From IMG/VR virus record IMGVR_UViG_3300020050_009209: a DNA stretch of 64,000 nt, one strand, 5' to 3'. The DNA comes from a virus. Its lineage: Duplodnaviria > Caudoviricetes. The notes below the pieces were generated by a model. That model was not told the origin of the DNA. It made no database searches and worked only from the letters and a program-made list of their open reading frames with translations. The translations under genes were made by a program, and so were the position numbers. Below are positions 1 through 55,452 of the stretch, one piece after another. Within the stretch, counting starts at the first letter, position 1, and every line of letters begins with the position of its first letter.

Positions 1-756
1 GGACTATTCGCGCCCAAGCTCAGTCCCTCATTCGCGAAGTTGGCCTTCCGTGTTCTGGAGTCTGTAATCTCGTTTGGGACGACAGTCCAAGACAGTCTTC
101 GTTCTCGTGCGGTTGAGGATGTTCGGGATCGAATGCTCTTGGCTGTTCAGCGCTACCGAGAGCTGGCACTAGAGCATCCACTTGAGGCTGACCCTGAGTA
201 TGTTAACTGGCTTGGCCAGGAGGGGCGTGCCGAGTCTTGGGTTGCAAACTTCCCTCTAGGTCCTGAGTTCACGGAAAAGCACCGTAAACACAAGGAAAGT
301 CAGAGGTGGGTTCCTGAGGGTACGTACGCTATCGCGTTCGACGCTCGGGAGATCGATAAGGAAAGTGGGGGGTTTGCTTGGCATCCCTCGAAGGGTGGGT
401 GCTGGGCGAACAAGAAAGACGCAGAGCGCTATGCCATTCTAGGGGGAGAGACCCACGGTGATAACGGGGAGAATTGCTTCTGGAGCACACACGCCACGAA
501 CACCTCGGTACCGCTCTTCTCAGTTGCTCGGGTTGTTGGCCTCGGGGAGGTCTCACACATGGGAGAGACGATTATCGAGGTGGCCTACGACTACGGCACC
601 CCCTGGATGCAAGGGGAGACTCGAAAGGGGATCCCAGAAAAGGGGGGTGGGATCAAGCTCTTGACGAAGGAAGAGTATGACCTTCTACTACCTGAAGCGG
701 TACAGTTTTTCGAGAAGGCTGAGAAGGCCTCTCGGAAAAAGGAGAAAAATTCATGA
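1..756 (+). CDS. hypothetical phage protein (probably 5'-partial)
   Basis: Frame is open from base 1; stop overlaps the next ATG (ATGA). Confidence 0.7.
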   Translation, partial: GLFAPKLSPSFAKLAFRVLESVISFGTTVQDSLRSRAVEDVRDRMLLAVQRYRELALEHPLEADPEYVNWLGQEGRAESWVANFPLGPEFTEKHRKHKESQRWVPEGTYAIAFDAREIDKESGGFAWHPSKGGCWANKKDAERYAILGGETHGDNGENCFWSTHATNTSVPLFSVARVVGLGEVSHMGETIIEVAYDYGTPWMQGETRKGIPEKGGGIKLLTKEEYDLLLPEAVQFFEKAEKASRKKEKNS

Positions 757-5734: not shown

Positions 5735-6040
5735 GCTCTTCTCAATCAAATGTGTAGTGAAATATGCCCCACTTAACTTCAACCGACTCGTAGGCCTTAC
5801 TTAGGGAGGGAATCAAGTCGACTGCAAAGATCCGCATCCCCTCTATGGCGAGGTCTTTCTCAGCCTCAGATGGGATCTGGCATGCTTCGGAAAATTCCTT
5901 GCATGTGGCTTTTGACAGCCTCCTCCAACCGGAAGAGCTTGTCCTGAAGGTCTTTCGCCGTACCCTCTAGAATCTCTTGAGCCCGTTCTTGACAGAGGGC
6001 ATTGTACTGCTCCATGAGCAACTCTATGAAGAGTTTAGGG

Positions 6041-6457: not shown

Positions 6458-6624
6458 GAGTCAGCCTTCACCCCATCCGGGAAGTAGGTTCGAGCGAAGT
6501 CCACCTCCCCATCCTTTCCGGACATAGCTCCTAGAAGGAGCTTGGCAAAATCAGTGTTTCCGGTCAGACTCATTGCAGGATACTTCATGTCCTTACCTAC
6601 GTATCGACCAAGGTACGGTTTAAG

Positions 6625-17012: not shown

Positions 17013-17043
17013 GGCAGGTACTACGTAGGTTGACGTGGAGTCT

Positions 17044-19851
17044 TTAAGGCAAAATGCACTCCTCAGCCGGATCTTCCAGAAGAGGCTCTAGCATAAATCC
17101 AGTCAAAGGGGTCCCTTTAGCTGGGTGAAACCTCTTCGCTGCTTTTTTGGCTTCGTGCTTCGTGCGGAACACAGTTGCGTTCTCGACGAACCCAGGTTTA
17201 CAACCAGAGGAGTGCACCTCTAAGTAAGAGGCAGTGCCAATGATTCGAACGAGGTACCCTACTTGGGTCATATCGGACGGACATTCTCAGGGGCGAGTCG
17301 AAGGATCCTACCTGAGCGGTCCATCTTCACATGGACCAAGTTTTTCTTGTCCAGCTTACGAATAGTTCCGAACCGGTCCCCTCGCATCCAAGCATCCGTG
17401 CCAGGATGTAACTCAACCCTCTGAGGGGGGAGAGTCTCTACTACAGGATCACTTGCCATGAATTCGTCCTCATTCAAGGATAGGCTTTACACTGGGATGG
17501 GAGCAAGCGTACCTGCTGCTCACGTCGCACTTGGTTCCCATCATGACTGCGCAAGATGGTCACACACAGGGATGCCCCGAGTTCGATGTACGGGCGCTCA
17601 CTAAGGGGGACGGCTGAGAGGGGCATGGTTGCGATAGCTTCCTCCCCCTTAGATGAGACCGTTCGGAGTCGAAGCTCGACACCCTCGATAGCTTCGATGT
17701 AACACTCGAAGCACTCCTCAACCACCTCAGTGCTTGGGGTCTTAGCTACCGCTTCTCGCAGTTCACTGATACGCTCGCCACCCTTGCGATGACTCCGACC
17801 CCGCCAAGCCGTTCGCTCAGGGTTGTGCTTAGTTCTCTTCATGTGAAGTCCTACGTAGTGGAGTTGTGAGGGTTTAACCTACCGTTTCACTAGAGTGCCA
17901 GGTCGGACCTGCAACGCATTGATACAAGCGTCATCTCGCCTTACGTCGGGTCCCTTCACCCACAGAACTTGGCTAAACAAGTCGCAGCGAGTTCTTGCCT
18001 CCGAGAGATTTTGAGTGTTCGGGGCTACATTTCGTTGTAGGTAGGTGCACGCTGACCCACAGTGAGTAGGCTCGAAACCAACTTCAATTTCCCTCTCTAC
18101 CCAAATCTTCAAAGTCTCTTTCAATTTCGACCTCGATTTCCACCTAGCGAGTCTCCACAGTCGAGGCAGGTTGCTCCACCATGGAACATTGGCTTCTGGT
18201 TCAGGTGCTTACAGTTTGCGTCTGCCACCAGGGGTAGGTCATCCAGTCGAATTCCTCGTGGCTTCGAAGGCAAGCTGTTGAGGTCACGAACGCCCTGCCG
18301 AGTTACTTTGCTTTTCTTGCTCATTGTCTTCTCTATGCAGCCATCAGGCTTTTGATTTGCTCCCGAGTGGGGTCCTCTACTACTACACCCCATTCCCAAC
18401 TGTGAAGGTAATTTCCGCAGTTGCCAGCGCAAGTAGTGTCGACCATCGCAGTGGCCTGAGCATCTTCTTCCGTTTCACCTTCAGCAATGGCCTCCAAGTA
18501 GGCCTCCTGTACCTGGTCGTCACACAGGAGACCAGGGGCGTTATCTACAATCCAGTCTACGGCGATATCCAAAGCCGTGTCCAGACTGTCCCCCCAGATC
18601 ATAAGCTGAGTGTCCCTGTAAGCCCCGAACCACAGGACATACCGGTGCTTTACCCAGGATCGATCCGTACCATTTACAATGTGAATCATGCTTCAGGTCT
18701 CAAGTGTGAAGAGGAGGGGAAATCCGATTGACGTGGTCGTAGAAGGATGGACCCCTACGACGTCCCTTCCCCGCAGTAAACGTGCGAATCCAAGCCCAAG
18801 CTTCCCTGGTGCAGGGGCCGCATACAATGAACGTAGGGCTGTAAACACAGCCAGTTGCAGGGTGGGCATGACCCTCACAGGTGCGGCAACGATGACTTAC
18901 AAACTCTGGGTTGTCCACTTTAGTCTCCCACTTGTCTCGGTATCTGGAGTACCACCTCTTAACGAAAAGAGGGTGCAGAGTACCACACGGTGAGGTACCC
19001 GTTTACGAACTCTCGGTACGACTTCGTAGCCTCAGCCATCTCAAGGAAGAGATCGGCTTCCTCGTCGCTATCGAACACCTTCTTGAAGTCGTAGTGCTCG
19101 CCATCGATCTTGTACATACCTACCTTACGGATGGGACACTCAAACCCTTAACGAAAAAGAGGGGCAGGGTGTTACTAACCCTGCCCCTTAAGATTTTCCA
19201 GGTAGTTACTTGCCTTACCCAACTGGGTCCGGTCTTTCTCCGGATGGCATCATACAGTGCTCCTCGTGTTGTTACCTTTCGGGATACTTTTAGCTTACTT
19301 ACATCTCAGCTCAAGTCAAGTGGATTTTGCCTCTTTTGGGGCGATGTTCGCATTGTTGACTGCCTCTTGTACGATAGCGTCAGCAGCGTCCATGATACCA
19401 ATTCCAGTTGACCAGTGCATGGGTACTGCACGTTTACCGAGTTGCTTGCAAATCCAAAACTGAAGCTCAAGACCTTGCGTTTCGTGGAGTTCAGAGGTTG
19501 AGTAGGTTCCACGAGGAAGCAACTTCAGGGGTGGGCGTTTACCTACCATGGTGGCAATCGCATCCCCACATGGGTCCTTGATGCCCTCGAAGTAGTAGTG
19601 ATGTGTTCGCACAATCAACCCCCTCCCAACTTTAGGTGAGTCTTAGCCAGCAACTTTGCCTGGATTCGGGTCTTCCCTTCACTGGTACTAATCTGAATCC
19701 AAGCAGGTTTTCCTGGGATGGCCCAGAACCACAGGTGAGATAGAAGGCTCCACCAGGACTTTGCATGAGTAAGCCAAACGCCACCCTTCGCATCAATCAC
19801 AATCATGCCGTGGAGGGCGTAGGCTTTAGCTCGAATGATTTCGACTGTCAT
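17044..19851 (-). other. string of small hypothetical ORFs (17044-17271, 17268-17477, 17474-17842, 17879-18124, 18121-18324, 18333-18689, 18700-18918, 19316-19618, 19615-19851)
   Basis: Coupled ORFs; class I promoters at 17852-17877 and 19126-19151. Confidence 0.65.
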
Positions 19852-23842: not shown

Positions 23843-23877
23843 GTTTAACCCTACGAAAGTAGAGAGAGTACGCTTAA

Positions 23878-35103: not shown

Positions 35104-36231
35104 TCAGCCATCCTTGGTTCGATACTTACCATTAAGCATTTTGCTAATTACTGATTGGCTTACTTTATAGAGTTGTGCCATCTCTCTCTGTGTTAAACCT
35201 TTGGCTTGAAGGGCCTTCACCTCAGCTACATCCTGAGTGCTAAACTTAGGTTTATTTGGGTTACCACTACCCAACCAAGCTCTGGACTTGGCAAGACGGT
35301 TCTCTGGCTTTACCTCCCTACCAAACATAGGATTACCAGGACCTTTCCTAGCTTCGGAGAGTTGCCTCTTAAAGTCTTGAGACCTCTTGGATCCATAAGC
35401 CGGATGATCTGACCCACGAAGTCCAAACAAAGGGGCGTTCTCGCCTGAGTAAGCACCTTCAGCACTTCGAGTTTTGACTGTCGCGGCTCGCTTGGCTCTC
35501 GCCTCATCGGACAGAGTTATGCCATCCCCTCCAGGGGTTAGGTTGTACCCATACCCTCGCTCGTTAGAGCGGTACCTGGCAACCCATACTTTTTCTTGCT
35601 CATAGGCTTCTTTTTCGTTTTCACATATTTCCAGGGTTTCGTACATGAAGTTACCTTCTCCGTACTTTGCCATGGCGCTATGTACAAGGCTGAATGCTTT
35701 GTGGTCTGGGTGCTTAGACAACCAAACGTGCATACCCCATCGAGACGCGGGGTCTTTTGACTTACCGACGTACCGTTTACCGTTCACTTTGTTAGTGAGG
35801 CAATACACACTTGGCTGCACGTCAACTGGTTTCTCCCTGCCAATGATGGTTACGTTAGCGGAGCAAACCCCTAATCTAGCGTGAACTAGATCTATTGCCA
35901 CTTGTGGGTCGAAGTCCCCACAGGAGAAAACATCGAAGCTAAAGAACTTTTGGAGAGGCCAAGCATGAATGCTGATGTGGCTTTTACTAATGATGCAGGT
36001 TCCAGTAATGCCGCCCTCATCACGGAATACCCCTGTTGCCCTTGACTGACGCAACACCTCAGGGTCCATGGGAACCTCCACAAAGTTAGGACCCACTAGA
36101 ATATCCATGTCGAGAGCGGACACAAGATCAACAAACAGGTTGGCTAGTGTCTCCTTTGTGAATACAAGAGGGTCATTAACAAATGCGTCAATGAGGACGT
36201 GAACTCCCGCGCTCTCGATAACTCGACTCAT
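35104..36231 (-). CDS. SpeD-like pyruvoyl decarboxylase fused to a GIY-YIG/NUMOD3 homing endonuclease
   Basis: GGITG..IISKSHISIHAWP...DVFSCG, then VYCLTN..NGKRYVG...RW..H, GYNLTPGG and NPMFG repeats. Confidence 0.85.
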   Translation of the reverse strand: MSRVIESAGVHVLIDAFVNDPLVFTKETLANLFVDLVSALDMDILVGPNFVEVPMDPEVLRQSRATGVFRDEGGITGTCIISKSHISIHAWPLQKFFSFDVFSCGDFDPQVAIDLVHARLGVCSANVTIIGREKPVDVQPSVYCLTNKVNGKRYVGKSKDPASRWGMHVWLSKHPDHKAFSLVHSAMAKYGEGNFMYETLEICENEKEAYEQEKVWVARYRSNERGYGYNLTPGGDGITLSDEARAKRAATVKTRSAEGAYSGENAPLFGLRGSDHPAYGSKRSQDFKRQLSEARKGPGNPMFGREVKPENRLAKSRAWLGSGNPNKPKFSTQDVAEVKALQAKGLTQREMAQLYKVSQSVISKMLNGKYRTKDG

Positions 36232-40638: not shown

Positions 40639-40661
40639 ACTGGTGGCACTCAACAAGAAGG

Positions 40662-41180
40662 TTAACCTCTCAACGGTAACCCCTCGGCTGCCAACTCTTC
40701 TTGGAGTAGTAACCTAAGCCTAGGTAGAACCTTCTCGACAAAGGACCAAGATTGCCCTTCGCGTTTGGACACGGGGATGTCAACCCAGTCCTGGTAGTCC
40801 AAGTCTAGATCCTCAGTCCAGCTGGTGAGACTATGCCAGTCCTCTACCGTGGAGCTTAGATCCCGAGCCTCCTCTATAAGCCTTGTAGTTATCTTCCCTG
40901 CCGCCAGCATAGCATCAAGCTTTAACTGTATGGCCTTTTGGGTAGCATCTACGTCCCAAACCCAAGCCTCTCGACCTTGAGTAATTTTTCCCCAGAAGGA
41001 GTCAGGAGCCGTACTACACAGGAACTGCCTAAAGTCCAATGGACCGATGTTGGTCCACATGTACGAATAGTTCCCCCAGTCGCTTACGGTGGAGAAGTAC
41101 CCGTCCTTCAGGTCCAATACAACGACAGCCCAACCCTCGCCATTGATCGAGGGGATGTTGTAACGACGAAAAGAGGTCAT
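40662..41180 (-). CDS. phage protein, paralog of 13161..13703
   Basis: Shared N-terminal motif. Confidence 0.75.
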   Translation of the reverse strand: MTSFRRYNIPSINGEGWAVVVLDLKDGYFSTVSDWGNYSYMWTNIGPLDFRQFLCSTAPDSFWGKITQGREAWVWDVDATQKAIQLKLDAMLAAGKITTRLIEEARDLSSTVEDWHSLTSWTEDLDLDYQDWVDIPVSKREGQSWSFVEKVLPRLRLLLQEELAAEGLPLRG

Positions 41181-43110: not shown

Positions 43111-43935
43111 TTAGACTTCAGCTCTCTCGTTCTTGACGTCGAAGTGCTTGCGTAGGACCGACTTGATTTGGTCCTTGTACTTCAGCCAAGCTGGGTGCGA
43201 CATCGGGTTGTTCTTGAGGAACGGGATCATCTGATCCCTTACAATCTCGGCGTCCGTATACCCCTGTAGGAGCAAGTCAAAGTAAAGGTCCAGGTCTGGA
43301 GTGACTCTGGGGTTTACCTTCCTAGCCAACTCCTCTCGGATGTTGTCCAAGTCACTCTCTAGAAGGTACTTGTCGAGGTGGTCCCAAGCCCCTGGGTCCT
43401 CAATGACCCTCTCAACGCCTTCCAGGTCCGTCATGGAATCCGTGATGCTCTTGTCCTCATCACCTCTGGTGTCATGCCTAAACTGGTCGATAGCTAGCAT
43501 GTTGAGGGACGTGAGGATGTAGCTCTCCGCTCTCTTTAGAGATTGACCCGACAGGTTCCGTAGAGAGTCAGGCTTAGCTAGGAACTTGAGCATTAGCTCC
43601 GTCATCAAGTCTTCTGCTCGGTTCGGATCGCGATGCTTCATGAGTAGCATCTTGTAAGCCTTCGAGCCAAAGTTGGCGCCGTAACCACTAGGGATCTTAC
43701 GGTCCATCTCTCGTGCGTTCTGAGGCTTGAAGTTCTCAGCAGGTTGATCCTTGATGGGTGGAAGTCCCTCCACCCCGTTCATCAAGAATAACCCGTAGAT
43801 AACTCTCCCGAACCCAGCAGCGGGCCCAGCTGCTAGCTTCACTAGAAGGTTAGCCAGCCTATATCCCCATGGAAGGCTGGCATATACCTTACGACCTAAC
43901 TCACTAGCGACTCTTACTAAGGCGTGTGTATCCAT
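43111..43935 (-). CDS. ECF-like phage sigma factor
   Basis: AEDLMTELMLKF and YILTSLNMLAIDQFR (region 2); LLLQGYTDAEI (region 4-like). Confidence 0.6.
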   Translation of the reverse strand: MDTHALVRVASELGRKVYASLPWGYRLANLLVKLAAGPAAGFGRVIYGLFLMNGVEGLPPIKDQPAENFKPQNAREMDRKIPSGYGANFGSKAYKMLLMKHRDPNRAEDLMTELMLKFLAKPDSLRNLSGQSLKRAESYILTSLNMLAIDQFRHDTRGDEDKSITDSMTDLEGVERVIEDPGAWDHLDKYLLESDLDNIREELARKVNPRVTPDLDLYFDLLLQGYTDAEIVRDQMIPFLKNNPMSHPAWLKYKDQIKSVLRKHFDVKNERAEV

Positions 43936-43961
43936 TACGGATAGTCTACGATAAAAGGATT

Positions 43962-45125
43962 CTACATCCCCCGAGAGACCATCCGCTGAGTGCCCTTTAC
44001 GGACAACCCAATGGTGGTTGCAATCTCGTTGAGATTGCAACCTTCGCTGAGAAGCTTGAGGATCTCAACCTCACGCTCCTGATTCCCCTCCGCAGACCAG
44101 CCCAGAGCCTTGCGGCTAGACTTACCAGAGGCAATCAGCTTCACAGTTTGAGTGAGGTCCACAATGACCTCTTGCTGACACCCATGAGGGTCGACGATAG
44201 CACTCTCCCATGAGACCTCTTCGCTACCCTCTCTTGGGGTGACAACAATCTCCTTGTGCCTACGAGACTTGGTTCGCAACCAGTTCACATAGATATTGAA
44301 GACAGCTCGGTACAAGTACTGCTTGAAGGTACCACGAGTCCTAGGAAGGTGAGGAGACCCAGAGGTATCGTAATCAACGACCTTCCGACCTTTGATTCGG
44401 AACTCCTCCCGAATCGCCTCGTACTTCTCAATGTCTGACTTAGAATAAGTAGCCTCAGAGGACATGCAATCCCCACTAATAGGAGATGGCGCCCACTGAC
44501 CCTTTAACCTAGGGCAACAAAAGAGGCACAAGGTGTGCACTTCCGAGAGGGTAGGTTCAAGACTACTCACTTCCGCATTACCCGTACGGTACAAGTAGAA
44601 GTTTTGGAAACGAGAAACCACCCAAAAGACTTGACGGGTCTTAGGGATCCCGAACTCCCGCTGAAGGTTCTCTCGTTCCTCCTCTTGAAGGTCCTTGGAC
44701 ATCAACCTAAGCTTGCTAGCATAGGAATTCATGTCGGTACCACAAGAAGAGCATACCCCGTGGTCCCTACTCTCCACTTCCTCTAGAAGAGCCTTAGAGG
44801 GACGCTCTACCTTCAATCCCTTAGGGAAGACTCCCAAGACGTATCGGTATACCGCCATCTTGAAAGCACTTTCTTGCATCTTCAGGTAAGCAGCAGCTGA
44901 GGAAGCTGTCACAACCTCAGGCAACCTTACCGAGTAGGAGTTGTCATACTTCCTTAGGAAGTCGGCTTCAAACAACTTGAGCCAGACATGCTGGATGATA
45001 TCCGCCGAGTTATCAGCTACCTTGTTAGCCTTTCGGATCGCACTACTCACAAAGGTGGAGTAATGCTTTACGAAGTCGTTGTTGTTCTTAGGTACGTAGT
45101 CTTCATCAGTCTTTTTAACAAGCAT
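43962..45125 (-). CDS. ECF-like sigma factor with a ~200-aa HTH/HNH-like insertion in region 2
   Basis: ADIIQHVWLKL..KYD / RGTFKQYLYRAVFN..VNWLR; region 4 EREVEILKLLSEGCNLNEIATTIGLS; start set by class I promoter at 45135-45160. Confidence 0.7.
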   Translation of the reverse strand: MLVKKTDEDYVPKNNNDFVKHYSTFVSSAIRKANKVADNSADIIQHVWLKLFEADFLRKYDNSYSVRLPEVVTASSAAAYLKMQESAFKMAVYRYVLGVFPKGLKVERPSKALLEEVESRDHGVCSSCGTDMNSYASKLRLMSKDLQEEERENLQREFGIPKTRQVFWVVSRFQNFYLYRTGNAEVSSLEPTLSEVHTLCLFCCPRLKGQWAPSPISGDCMSSEATYSKSDIEKYEAIREEFRIKGRKVVDYDTSGSPHLPRTRGTFKQYLYRAVFNIYVNWLRTKSRRHKEIVVTPREGSEEVSWESAIVDPHGCQQEVIVDLTQTVKLIASGKSSRKALGWSAEGNQEREVEILKLLSEGCNLNEIATTIGLSVKGTQRMVSRGM

Positions 45126-45756
45126 CGTCTTCCTTACGGAAGTTGGAGGTGAACACTTAACCGAAAACTTGATCCCACACACACACATGACTACTAAGTA
45201 GGATTGAGGTACTGAGGAGGGCTGCTCTATCTAGGGGGGTAGGGTTAGGATGACTGGTTAGGTTGAAAGGGATGTTCGTATCAGGATGATTGGTTTTTGA
45301 GTTAGTTTCGCTACGCTATACCAAAAAGAATAAGATCTGATCGGTATAGGAGGGGTTAAGGATGGTGGTCCTAGGTAGTAACCCCTATCTGAGTCTACTG
45401 AGTCCTTGAGGGACTCTTTGGTCGGAGTGAGTTATGAAGTACCTACCTCAATGCTCACTTACTTACGGGATCTGCCTAACTTTCCACAACTTCATGTTAG
45501 ACTGGAGCGACTCATCTTTCAGAGCCTCCTCTCCAAGGAGAGGACCTTAAGAGACCTTCTAGAGGAAAGAAGCTGACCCCTCTAGACTAACCCACACAGG
45601 CTTTTCAAGTACTGATCAGGAAGTGCTGTCACTACTTGTCCTACTTTCTAGTAGGTATGGAACCCTATAACCCATCCCTCGGTCACTGAGGTTGACCCCT
45701 CTCGTATAGACCTGAGAAACCCCTAGCGCAAGTCATTTTGTTCTGGTACCATCTCA

Positions 45757-46280: not shown

Positions 46281-46384
46281 CCCGCGCCCGACCGGCTGCG
46301 GCAGCTCAACGCGGTCGCCATCGTGCAGGTGCGCTCGCTGCTCACCTCGCCCACCGTGAAGCGCCTCGCGCCAGGGAAGAAGAC

Positions 46385-47926
46385 ATGACGAAACGACTCA
46401 AGCGACTGGAGCTGACGTGGATCGGCAAGGAGGACCGGCCCCGCCTGGAGCCACGCATCCTCCTTGAGGACGAGCAGCTGTCCTACGCGAAGCGCGTGTC
46501 AGACGAGGACATCTTCGACAACCGGCTGATCCACGGGGACAATTTGCTGGCGCTGAAGGCGCTGGAGCAGGAGTTTGCGGGGAAGGTGAAGTGCGTCTTC
46601 ATCGACCCTCCGTACAACACGGGTAATGCATTTGAGCAGTACGATGATGGCCTTGAGCACTCTCTCTGGCTATCGCTCATGAGAGATCGACTTTCGCTGC
46701 TGTGGGCGCTTCTGGCAGATGATGGTTCGATCTGGATTACCATCGACGACACCGAGGCTCACTACTTGAAGGTCCTCTGCGATGAACTGTTCGGTCGGGG
46801 GTCGTATGTAGGGAGCATTGTCTGGGAGAAAGACAAGGGAAGGCGGAGCGATACCGCGCTTTCGATCTCTCATGACTATATCCTGCTTTACGCCAAGAAC
46901 TCGAAGATTTGGGGTTCCCGACGGAATCTTCTTGTTCGCGAAGCCCACCAGGAAGGGCGCTACAAGAATCCTGACAACGACCCCCGTGGTCCGTGGTTGC
47001 AAGGAGACAATGGCACTGCAAAGAGTGCAAGTGAAGGAAGTCGTTGGCCAATCACTCTCCCGTCGGGGAGAGTGGTTCGCCCTCCAAATGGTCGCGGGTG
47101 GGCCTTCTCTATCGACACCTTCGAAACCGCGCGGTCCGAGGGACGTGTCTACTGCGGGCGTGATGGAGATGGTATGCCTATCATCAAACGATACTTGTCC
47201 GAGGTGCAGGATGGTGTCGTTCCCCGCAGTTGGTGGCCCGCCGACGATGCAGGGCACAACCAAGAGGCCAAGCGCGATCACCTCAACAAGCTGCTGCAGG
47301 GCGTGACTCCGTTCGCTACGCCAAAGCCGGAGCGTCTTCTTCAGCGAATCCTCACGATTGCGACCAACCCCGGCGAACTCGTCCTAGACTCTTTTGCTGG
47401 GTCGGGGACGACCGGCGCCGTCGCACAAAAGATGGGACGCCGCTGGATCATGATTGAACTCGGTGAGCACTGCTACTCACATCTCTTGCCGCGCATTCGA
47501 AAAGTGGTCGATGGCAAGGACCCCTACGGCATTACGACAGATGTCGAATGGTCGGGAGGCGGAGGCTTCCGCTTCTACAGGCTCGCCCCCTCGCTGCTTG
47601 AGAAGGACAAGTGGGGCAACTGGATCGTCAGCAAGCAGTACCAACCCGAGATGCTCGCCGAGGCGATGTGCAAGCTGGAGGGCTTCCGGTACGCGCCGGA
47701 TCGGGAGGCCTTCTGGAACCATGGTCACTCGACCGAGCGCGACTTCATCTACGTGACCACCCAGAACCTGAGCCCCGACCAGCTCCGCTTCATCAGCGAC
47801 CAGGTTGGCCCCGAGCGCTCGCTGCTCATCTGCTGTGGCGCTTTCCGGGGCAAGCCCGACTTCGCGAACCTGACGGTGAAGAAGATCCCGCAGGCGGTGC
47901 TCGCGCGCTGTGAGTGGGTCGAGTGA
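46385..47926 (+). CDS. mod: Type III R-M Mod subunit (N6-adenine DNA methyltransferase), probably C-terminally clipped
   Basis: LIHGDNL, IDPPYN, TPKPE.LL, VLDSFAGSGTT; GC-rich codon usage. Confidence 0.9.
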   Translation: MTKRLKRLELTWIGKEDRPRLEPRILLEDEQLSYAKRVSDEDIFDNRLIHGDNLLALKALEQEFAGKVKCVFIDPPYNTGNAFEQYDDGLEHSLWLSLMRDRLSLLWALLADDGSIWITIDDTEAHYLKVLCDELFGRGSYVGSIVWEKDKGRRSDTALSISHDYILLYAKNSKIWGSRRNLLVREAHQEGRYKNPDNDPRGPWLQGDNGTAKSASEGSRWPITLPSGRVVRPPNGRGWAFSIDTFETARSEGRVYCGRDGDGMPIIKRYLSEVQDGVVPRSWWPADDAGHNQEAKRDHLNKLLQGVTPFATPKPERLLQRILTIATNPGELVLDSFAGSGTTGAVAQKMGRRWIMIELGEHCYSHLLPRIRKVVDGKDPYGITTDVEWSGGGGFRFYRLAPSLLEKDKWGNWIVSKQYQPEMLAEAMCKLEGFRYAPDREAFWNHGHSTERDFIYVTTQNLSPDQLRFISDQVGPERSLLICCGAFRGKPDFANLTVKKIPQAVLARCEWVE

Positions 47927-51560: not shown

Positions 51561-51586
51561 TTAAGGGTTCGAGCGGTGTCTACGTA
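51561..51586 (+). promoter_or_regulatory. class I promoter opening the tRNA cluster
   Basis: TTAA-N18-CGTA 14 nt before tRNA-Tyr. Confidence 0.75.
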
Positions 51587-52314: not shown

Positions 52315-52367
52315 CTAACATTGAAGTCTGCTAGGGTGGGTAATCTTCTTGTTACGCACACCTTCAT

Positions 52368-54134: not shown

Positions 54135-54368
54135 CAAAGAGCTACGGTGAAAACGTATCAACGTAGCTCTTAGATGTCAGAGTCCCGGCTAGGAGTCCGG
54201 CAAAAAGATACTCGGTAAGTATGGCAAACGAGGGGTCCCCAAGCTCCTTGCCCGTTCGACACGGGATAATACGAGTGGGCGTTTGAGGTGTGTCGCAACA
54301 CGCTGATATCGAACCTTTGGTCCATCTAGGAGAGCGGTTCAAGATCTACTTATCGCTTACGCCTAAGT

Positions 54369-55164: not shown

Positions 55165-55422
55165 ATGCTAGTGCAGGTCCAAGTAGGTAGGTTCAAGATC
55201 TCCTTTTCAGGCTCCGAGTTGTACTACATGACCTTCGAGTGTGTGGACTACAATGGGGTCATTCTTGCAGACTCTACGCAGAGGTATGAGGTTCTGAACG
55301 GGGCTCTTGGGGAGAGGTTACTCATTACACGGAAACATGAGTTTGGTTTCTGCCAAGACCTACCCTTTCACCTGGGTACTGCCCACTTCCTCCCAAAAGG
55401 AGTGACTGTCGATTTAAGTTAA
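55165..55422 (+). CDS. hypothetical protein
   Basis: ATG ORF between RNA genes. Confidence 0.45.
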   Translation: MLVQVQVGRFKISFSGSELYYMTFECVDYNGVILADSTQRYEVLNGALGERLLITRKHEFGFCQDLPFHLGTAHFLPKGVTVDLS

Positions 55423-55452
55423 GACCTGGGTCCTACTTGACGTAGGCACCTA

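Follow-up and report, generated by a model that had tools for sequence, protein, structure and literature searches.

The 64,000-nucleotide stretch of viral DNA analyzed here (Duplodnaviria; Caudoviricetes; IMG/VR record IMGVR_UViG_3300020050_009209; hereafter the window) encodes on its minus strand P0001, a sigma factor resembling those of the extracytoplasmic function (ECF) group, and our analysis confirms that its specificity loop carries nested domain insertions. P0001 is composed of a sigma2 domain, a linker, and a sigma4 helix-turn-helix (HTH). A winged helix of the MerR/excisionase type occupies the loop between regions 2.2 and 2.3 of sigma2, and this winged helix is itself interrupted by a ZRANB3-type HNH fold that has retained its zinc cysteines and lost its H-N-H catalytic residues. 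In our assessment, the best explanation is that P0001 serves a huge phage as an ECF-like sigma factor in which the nested insert adds DNA contacts near the -10 element, an account we consider rather probable while well short of assured. If true, it would represent a new route to promoter specificity and a clear example of a nuclease fold domesticated by the transcription machinery. What is known here from genes and models is that about 150 clusters from uncultivated huge phages carry a whole DNA-binding-type domain within the sigma2 specificity loop.

A sigma2 domain interrupted by nested domains

A preceding interpretation, made from the letters alone (the sequence-only reading), held that ECF region 2 is split by ~200 aa between the segments ...FLRKYDNS and RGTFKQYLYR, and the Pfam and TIGR02937 coordinates agree. 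Pfam Sigma70_r2 aligns aa 19-54 of P0001 to profile positions 2-37 of 71, while TIGR02937 aligns aa 265-386 to positions 50-157 of 165 (E = 3.8e-7). Because the first match stops at aa 54 and the second resumes at aa 265, the sigma2 signature is split, with 200 aa separating FLRKYDNS (aa 56-63) from RGTFKQYLYR (aa 264-273). On the Pfam profile, the break comes between positions ~37 and ~42-45, in the "fdp..g.sf" loop, which is the short loop joining the region 2.2 helix to the region 2.3/2.4 helix. The database matches of P0001 alone are weak and collinear (Sigma70_r2, TIGR02937, GerE/HTH_38), and its relatives give firmer ones: 60 of the 113 aligned sequences match Sigma70_r2 (PF04542) on their own, at best with E = 1e-8, and the family profile matches regions 2.1-2.2 of Staphylococcus aureus sigB (E = 2.8e-4). 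A PDB sequence search with P0001 alone retrieved no sigma, MerR, or HNH structure, the best rows being a CAP repeat (E = 0.11) and BspA (E = 1.3).

An AlphaFold2 model, for which the alignment of 113 family sequences served as input, has a mean predicted local distance difference test score (pLDDT) of 84.4 and a predicted template modeling score (pTM) of 0.61. Exhaustive comparison of this model with 48,161 PDB representatives using VIA-align returned three coherent fold groups. The sigma2 group aligns 75-90 residues at Z 6-8.1 and a root-mean-square deviation (rmsd) of 2.4-3.4 A over model range 8..291, with individual matches beginning at residues 4-13 and finishing at 284-297. It is led by S. 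aureus sigB (Z 8.1), followed by Mycobacterium tuberculosis (Mtb) sigH (7.6), SigI6 (7.5), and RpoE (7.5), and then, at 6.8-7.0, by AlgU, SigK, SigC, and sigmaE region 2. Since the aligned residues span 8..291, both halves pack as one sigma2 fold, an outcome in favor of the sequence-only reading, which had named the lack of such a fold as its decisive refutation. By the tool's own note, a VIA-align Z below 8 is not decisive alone; each fold assignment also has independent support. Whole-model Foldseek gave nothing at E < 1e-3, and the domain assignments therefore rest on VIA-align, the sequence profile, and consistent hit lists.

Conservation follows the same outline. Two motifs recur throughout the family, DxxQ in region 2.1/2.2 and F..YL...N..R...R in region 2.3/2.4, and F267, Y270, L271, N281, R284, and R288 in the C-terminal half of sigma2 are nearly invariant. 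The linker leading back into sigma2 (aa 251-263) varies in length in the alignment and has a ratio of nonsynonymous to synonymous substitution rates (dN/dS) of 0.44. Between sigma2 and sigma4, aa 293-345 are modeled mainly as coil plus a single helix (pLDDT 70-90). The sigma4 unit comprises three helices in the model (aa 346-386); P0001 gives weak GerE and HTH_38 matches at aa 350-376, and relatives match Sigma70_r4, r4_2, HTH_23, and GerE. Region 1.1 and sigma3 are absent. The compact size of ECF factors (~170-200 aa) is exceeded by P0001, which reaches 387 aa owing to the 200-aa insert in sigma2.

The outer insert is a winged helix of the MerR/excisionase type, as the sequence-only reading had put it. 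In the P0001 model, VIA-align recovers this fold at Z 5.3-6.2 over 54-64 residues (model range 67-71..241-251, or roughly 70..250), with matches to the MerR family, CbpM, RacA, TipAL, BmrR, SoxR, CvkR, and a small-terminase N-domain. The uninterrupted version in the short relative P0027 was folded in isolation (pLDDT 85) and shows the order strand-helix-helix-strand-strand-helix; VIA-align places 51-59 of its roughly 65 residues on known structures at Z 4-5.9 and an rmsd of 2.1-3.0 A. Its neighbors by VIA-align and Foldseek are almost all MerR N-domains and the excisionases RdfS, GIsul2 Xis, Pukovnik Xis, and TorI, and at least 30 MerR and excisionase structures are among the structural matches to the winged helix. 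In Foldseek the same superfamily dominates at E 0.15 or worse, so the assignment is made at fold level only. Pfam HTH_17 is found in four of 113 full-length relatives at E up to 0.01 (best 5e-5) and in two of 51 isolated domains at E = 0.016, and P0001 itself is without a match. A search of PDB sequences with the winged-helix profile found no MerR or excisionase protein, only the CAP repeat protein 8vd6 (E = 5.5e-5, with no single significant stretch). P215 and G218 are nearly invariant in the family, and the signature T..EA...LG ... P.P..G ... DI..L is like that of AlpA/Xis-type domains.

The inner insert, which the sequence-only reading described as an HNH-like zinc domain interrupting the HTH, has a ZRANB3-type HNH fold. 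Built from the 18 inner inserts, a profile matches the ZRANB3 HNH domain (PDB 5mkw) along nearly its full length (E = 3.1e-9; profile positions 16-112), and VIA-align superposes 90 of 117 residues at Z 7.3 with 23% identity (model 105..208). The best Foldseek matches in the PDB, BFVD, and the ESM Atlas are HNH proteins, the closest in the latter two databases being Megaviridae HNH proteins and ZRANB3. A Pfam scan of the 18 inner inserts gave no match to an HNH family, and a word-indexed search with the HNH-insert profile found no free-standing active relative. All four predicted zinc cysteines are present in P0001 (C125, C128, C200, and C203); C125, C200, and C203 are invariant, and C128 is kept in 17 of the 18 clade members and replaced by His in the remaining one. 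The ligands are thus retained among representatives that share 20-30% identity, in which D121, W168, and T198 are also nearly invariant.

The catalytic residues have met a different fate. In the HMMER alignment, FWQVDH of ZRANB3 pairs with F167-W168-V-V-S171-R172, LDNLQTLC with L193-S-E195-V-H-T-L-C200, and CTVCH with C200-L-F-C203-C204, and the H-N-H positions are therefore R172, E195, and C204. The catalytic His, whose absence from P0001 had been suspected, is found in none of the 18 clade members; a basic residue stands in its column in 15 of them (R 8, K 7), with G, L, and E once each. The HNH core is modeled at pLDDT 86-94. By the Nei-Gojobori method, for one pair formed by P0001 and its 91% identical orthologue on phage contig L001, dN/dS is 0.118 over the whole gene, 0.139 for the winged-helix layer, and 0.115 for the HNH layer. 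Substitution patterns of this kind indicate that the HNH layer is under purifying selection, and it is predicted to be catalytically dead.

An intein was considered and rejected, in keeping with the sequence-only reading, which had seen no intein termini. Pfam finds no Hint or intein family, only a chance-level Vwaint match (E = 0.14) in one of the 18 inserts, the boundaries ...RYVLGVFPK and ...CCPRLKGQW lack splice-junction residues, and the HNH fold accounts for the entire inner insert.

The family, its history, and the locus

An exhaustive HMMER search over 1.84 billion representatives returned 155 relatives at E <= 1e-3, of which 69 reach E <= 1e-10. All are metagenomic, several lie on contigs of 96-326 kb, and, where their sources name them, they are called "sigma-24" or "sigma-70 family". 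A word-indexed search with P0001 gave a single homologue, 91% identical. Searches of 50,697 isolated phage records (INPHARED) by tblastn with P0001, its neighbor P0002, and the short relative P0028, and by blastn with 8 kb, gave no match, so the family is not seen in cultured phages at that sensitivity. A PDB sequence search with the relative P0146 produced no relevant structure, only one row (a tRNA methyltransferase, E = 0.77). We found no description of a nested-insert sigma factor in the open-access literature and, to our knowledge, lineage-specific additions to sigma factors lie between domains or in the gap between regions 1.2 and 2.1, as in sigma-HetZ.

The search for homologues lacking the insert, as had been suggested, reveals how the layers are nested. 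The commonest relatives (240-320 aa) join P0001-equivalent residues ~11-98 straight to ~208-330 and are thus without aa ~99-207; in P0027, for example, residues 93 and 94 are adjacent across the missing inner insert. Eighteen representatives align end to end and include aa ~99-207. At the other extreme is P0146 (191 aa), the only relative of canonical size, which looks like a plain ECF sigma factor: residue 63 is joined to residue 265, and aa 64-264 are missing. This mapping divides P0001 into a core (aa 11-63 and 264-387), an outer insert (64-98 and 208-263), and an inner insert (99-207). Nearly all family members carry the winged helix, and the HNH layer marks one clade (support 0.93; FastTree, shared columns) that also contains two nonbearers, one truncated and one divergent in that region. 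Because P0146 is nested among insert-bearing proteins in the tree, its plain form more likely reflects secondary loss than the ancestral state. The family offers a natural deletion series: without insert, with a single layer, and with two layers.

Further additions are seen in other members. N-terminal extensions of 170-420 aa precede the sigma core in P0033, P0063, P0070, P0077, P0083, P0092, P0110, P0140, and others, P0083 having DUF2924/RAMA domains. Elsewhere in the outer insert, P0047, P0086, P0094, P0073, P0102, and P0113 have 50-90 additional residues of unassigned fold. Judged from these sequences, additions seem to gather preferentially in the loop region.

Within the window, the family profile finds P0001 at 2.9e-81 and no other member. 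The intact minus-strand open reading frame (ORF) ends at 43962 and in its longest form begins at 45188. The ATG at 45125, which gives 387 aa, is supported as the true start on three grounds: P0003, the 91% identical homologue on a 16-kb metagenomic contig, begins at the same residue; the family alignment begins at the residue that this ATG encodes; and the promoter-like motif at 45135-45160 falls between this ATG and that of the longer ORF. Upstream lies a 630-nt divergent intergenic region (45126-45756), which is 97-98% identical in L001; the sigma gene itself, with a dS of 0.37 (about 89-93% nucleotide identity), falls below that level. The intergenic region matches no known Rfam family and has an ordinary folding energy (z = -0.9).

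Downstream of the sigma gene lies P0002, a second sigma-like gene. Its product matches the phrog_1740 sigma factor (E = 9.6e-5) and aligns contiguously to Sigma70_r2 (aa 136-192 to profile 17-70). P0002 is 39% identical (E = 1e-56) to the gene after the sigma orthologue in the related phage contig L002, an identity also seen in its N-terminal ~120 aa, which have no assigned function. Recent paralogy of the two window proteins was rejected, as no similarity is detectable between them. Gene order is constant in the six relatives with gene calls, of both the HNH and the short type: a 248-288-aa gene follows the sigma gene after 7-30 nt, and 170-640 nt without a called gene always precede it.

Other neighbors at these loci are phage-like: a papain-like peptidase, S-adenosylmethionine (AdoMet) decarboxylase, dCTP deaminase, peptide deformylase, Ku, methyltransferases, and homing endonucleases. 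A 375-aa ORF at 35104-36231 (minus strand) joins the AdoMet decarboxylase in frame with a GIY-YIG + NUMOD3 + HTH_3 homing endonuclease, and in related phages AdoMet_dc stands alone with 135 aa (618-1025 in L002, 1526-1933 in L003); it would seem that the endonuclease has either been fused to its host gene or is reached by readthrough from it. A Type III-like Mod methyltransferase (PF01555) block at 46281-47919 has no counterpart in the 93%-identical L001, where its flanks join directly (~5994-6005).

Table 1. Features of the nested-insert sigma locus in window coordinates
Feature	Position	Strand	Basis
P0001 nested-insert sigma factor, whole coding sequence (387 aa + stop)	43962..45125	-	ORF list, translation, family profile
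sigma2 N-terminal half (aa 11-63; regions 2.1-2.2, including the ADIIQHVWLKLF motif)	44937..45095	-	Pfam, sigB profile, VIA-align, pLDDT 95-98
Outer insert, first part (aa 64-98): strand and two helices of winged HTH	44832..44936	-	VIA-align, isolated-domain matches, HTH_17 in relatives
Inner insert (aa 99-207): ZRANB3-like HNH/His-Me finger	44505..44831	-	Profile vs 5mkw, VIA-align, Foldseek, column counts
Outer insert, second part (aa 208-250): wing strands and third helix (WAPSP..G...YSKSDIEKY)	44376..44504	-	Conservation, VIA-align, pLDDT 88-97
Low-confidence linker back to sigma2 (aa 251-263)	44337..44375	-	pLDDT about 61 for aa 251-260
sigma2 C-terminal half (aa 264-292; regions 2.3-2.4)	44250..44336	-	TIGR02937, conservation, VIA-align
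sigma2-sigma4 linker (aa 293-345)	44091..44249	-	Model, middle part of TIGR02937
sigma4-type HTH (aa 346-387)	43965..44090	-	TIGR02937, weak GerE/HTH_38, three model helices
Bipartite promoter-like motif TTAA-N18-CGTA	45135..45160	-	Motif enrichment in window; CGTA 9 nt before sigma ATG
Second sigma-like gene P0002 (274 aa, ATG 43935), uninterrupted sigma2	43111..43935	-	phrog_1740, Sigma70_r2
Single-element-like box GAATCCTTTTAT	43951..43962	-	Read from sequence; 15 nt before P0002 start, overlaps sigma stop codon

What the nested insert may do at promoters

No part of the bacterial initiation machinery is more conserved than the sigma2 domain, whose specificity loop captures the flipped base of the -10 element. 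In Mtb sigma-H, the flipped -10 nucleotide sits in a pocket made by this loop (residues 72-79) and is stacked on W81 (PMC6411747). Two nearly invariant aromatics of the P0001 family, F267 and Y270, follow the insert at a place equivalent to that of the sigma-H aromatic. The residues were mapped onto sigma-H through Pfam profile coordinates and the ECF consensus rather than by residue-level alignment, because PDB sequence searches with P0146 found no relevant structure.

Several steps make up the mechanism we propose. P0001 would bind a bacterial-type RNA polymerase core through its region 2.1/2.2 motif and sigma4. The insert would project from the position of the ECF specificity loop, bringing the winged helix, as a binder of duplex DNA, and a noncutting HNH finger to the upstream edge of the -10 element, where they would touch DNA within the -10 region or immediately ahead of it. 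Placed between recognition helix and wing, the HNH finger would add backbone or minor-groove contacts without cleavage. Such contacts could work in the manner of sigma domain 3 at extended -10 promoters, or of the added domains of sigma-HetZ, and would give the phage a promoter specificity of its own. The HNH layer would then be a nuclease domesticated after a single acquisition and retained as a zinc module with a structural or DNA-contact role. That such a fold lends DNA-binding specificity next to the -10 reader is a plausible proposal, given the position of the insert in the ECF specificity loop (PMC6411747) and the precedent of inactivated His-Me fingers (PMC5714182).

A more specific form of this idea is one we put forward tentatively. 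In it, the family is a new class of phage sigma factors whose winged helix acts in cis from the -10 specificity loop as a substitute for sigma3 or MerR, gripping or reshaping the DNA just upstream of the -10 element, in one clade with reinforcement from the dead HNH; phage promoters closed to host sigma factors would thereby be opened, and P0001 and its partner would form a two-sigma cascade. The promoters concerned may be those of an over-spaced GGTTAA-N18-CGTA class or those of a single-element, -35-less ..CTTRT class found ahead of the partner sigma gene, and both classes can be recognized in the window.

The motif TTAA-N18-CGTA has 28 window matches where 1.0 is expected (0/100 shuffles), its strand follows gene orientation, and its full consensus is gGTTAAg-N~17-T.CGTAgGg (gGTTAAg ... 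T.CGTAgGg). Examples lie at 6598-6623, 17022-17047, 23852-23877, 45135-45160, 51561-51586, and 55419-55444. At about 19 sites CGTA is followed by an ATG at a distance of 8-9 nt, a spacing that implies mRNAs with little or no leader; at the sigma gene, the G-rich triplet after CGTA could pass for a Shine-Dalgarno sequence. Three sites precede tRNA or noncoding RNA arrays, which argues for a promoter rather than a translation signal, and on these grounds the motif is likely the main phage promoter class of the region. CGT(A) is the typical ECF -10 box (PMC5758882). Five copies are present in L001; the exact motif was not found in the L002 and L003 loci, where looser GGTTGA...CGT boxes lie upstream of the P0001 orthologues.

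The second class is more modestly enriched: AYCYWCTTRT has eight window matches against 2.2 expected, including 40653-40662(-), 52343-52352(+), and 54344-54353(+); the motif lies 14-17 nt before start codons and has no -35-like partner. Boxes of this single-element type precede the second sigma-like gene in three phages, as the window box has related counterparts, GATCCTCTTAT and GGATCTACTTGT, 15-17 nt before the P0002 orthologues in L002 and L003; the case for a conserved promoter element at this place is weak.

Autoregulation is usual for ECF sigma factors, and P0001, if autoregulated, would read the bipartite class. Alternatively, canonical CGT readout might fit P0002, with its uninterrupted sigma2, and the -35-less class would be left to P0001, in line with the sequence-only reading. 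The sequence-only reading had offered the insert as an explanation of -35-less promoters, a suggestion that is at present neither supported nor excluded; weighing against it, P0001 keeps its sigma4 HTH, and its own gene and 27 other window sites carry the motif with a -35-like box.

Several observations speak against added DNA contacts as the role of the insert. The winged helix has a small net charge (+3) and conserved positions that are mainly structural (W, P, G), the HNH layer is neutral (net charge 0), and apart from one T two nucleotides before CGTA the spacer of the bipartite motif has no conserved bases, so a sequence-specific extra element is not evident. P0001 itself scores under the curated Pfam and NCBIfam cut-offs (14 bits against 24 for Sigma70_r2), and the pTM of 0.61 makes the inter-domain geometry of the model unreliable. 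CbpM is among the top winged-helix matches, and some MerR-fold domains bind proteins.

The last of these points, together with the neutrality of the HNH layer, lends itself to a competing explanation that we treat as a serious minority possibility: the nested insert may be a regulatory or protein-docking module for an anti-sigma-like partner, the second sigma-like protein, a host factor, or a polymerase surface, or its four-cysteine zinc site may be a redox or metal switch that gates the sigma factor. Protein-binding MerR folds are indeed among the best structural matches (CbpM-CbpA, small-terminase N-domains, TniQ), the partner gene always follows closely, and PatU3, an inhibitor, and the beta subunit are further binding targets of the added domains in sigma-HetZ (PMC13342950). 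Against docking, however, the structural neighbors are mostly DNA-binding domains crystallized on DNA, the -10 specificity loop that holds the insert adjoins DNA in every solved ECF open complex (PMC6411747), and the R or K that replaces the catalytic His in most of the clade fits a phosphate contact.

It is improbable, in our estimation, that only the winged helix matters and that the HNH layer is a functionless, decaying remnant of a selfish homing endonuclease lodged in frame in a tolerant loop. The setting would suit such a relic: homing endonucleases abound in the window and in related contigs, among them the GIY-YIG enzyme fused to AdoMet decarboxylase, free HNH and GIY-YIG genes adjoin the sigma locus, the catalytic residues are lost, other clades have different extra segments around the same domain, and two proteins within the HNH clade are without the HNH. 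Yet the layer evolves under a dN/dS like that of the rest of the gene, its core is confidently modeled, and 18 representatives at 20-30% identity keep the zinc ligands together with D121, W168, and T198, a divergence over which a neutral remnant would have degraded or been deleted. Least likely of all, and very remote in our view, is that P0001 is no initiation factor but a stand-alone DNA-binding regulator or nuclease-related protein reusing sigma-like helices, as its subthreshold sigma-model scores and Z values below 8, which can reflect common helical arrangements, might suggest, or that its HNH is active with noncanonical residues, since the two sigma2 motifs are conserved family-wide, more than half of the aligned relatives match Sigma70_r2, sigma4 matches are present, sources call the relatives sigma factors, and all three H-N-H positions are substituted, the His throughout the clade.

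The two sharply defined promoter motifs of the phage are ready templates, and orthogonal sigma/promoter pairs are useful in synthetic biology.

Comparison with known systems

Group 4 (ECF) sigma factors such as Mtb sigma-H, Escherichia coli sigma-E, and Bacillus subtilis sigma-W share with P0001 the sigma2-linker-sigma4 plan and the region 2.1/2.2 and 2.3/2.4 motifs, and they provide its best structural matches. The CGTA -10 box of sigma-W is like the abundant motif of the phage (PMC5758882). The specificity loop, in contrast, is only about eight residues long in sigma-H (PMC6411747), whereas the P0001 family has about 100 aa inside it and the HNH clade 200 aa. The promoters differ as well: the gap between GGTTAA and CGTA in the phage is 18 nt, longer than the 14-17 bp spacing of ECF promoters (PMC5758882).

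The best functional precedent is sigma-HetZ of Anabaena, likewise an ECF-type sigma enlarged by extra domains, three in number, which have been shown to take over reading and unwinding of the -10 element and to bind a regulator (PMC13342950). These domains precede sigma2, fall between it and region 3.2, and follow sigma4; sigma2 is split by none of them, they are not nested, and their folds are neither a MerR winged HTH nor an HNH. The family profile did not match sigma-HetZ in the PDB, and no sequence relation was detected.

Each layer of the insert has relatives of its own. The winged helix has the strand-helix-helix-strand-strand-helix topology of the MerR/excisionase domains (HTH_17, Xis, RdfS, TorI). 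Unlike MerR, it is present as a single copy embedded in another domain, without a dimerization coiled coil or effector domain, and in the HNH clade it is itself interrupted between recognition helix and wing. The inner layer has the fold of the ZRANB3-type HNH (His-Me finger group 1), and the helical segment that links the first CxxC to the FW..DH strand is shared as well, but the catalytic D-H, N, and H have become S-R, E, and C in P0001 (E/x-K/R in the clade), and in contrast to ZRANB3 and the giant-virus HNH proteins the domain is neither free-standing nor terminal. Inactivated His-Me fingers, for example Smad MH1, retain DNA binding (PMC5714182). Smad MH1 offers a parallel for the proposed domestication, being a nuclease fold that lost its catalytic His and became part of a transcription factor (PMC5714182); it belongs to another His-Me subgroup, a eukaryotic one, and its DNA binding has been shown, whereas that of the P0001 insert is predicted.

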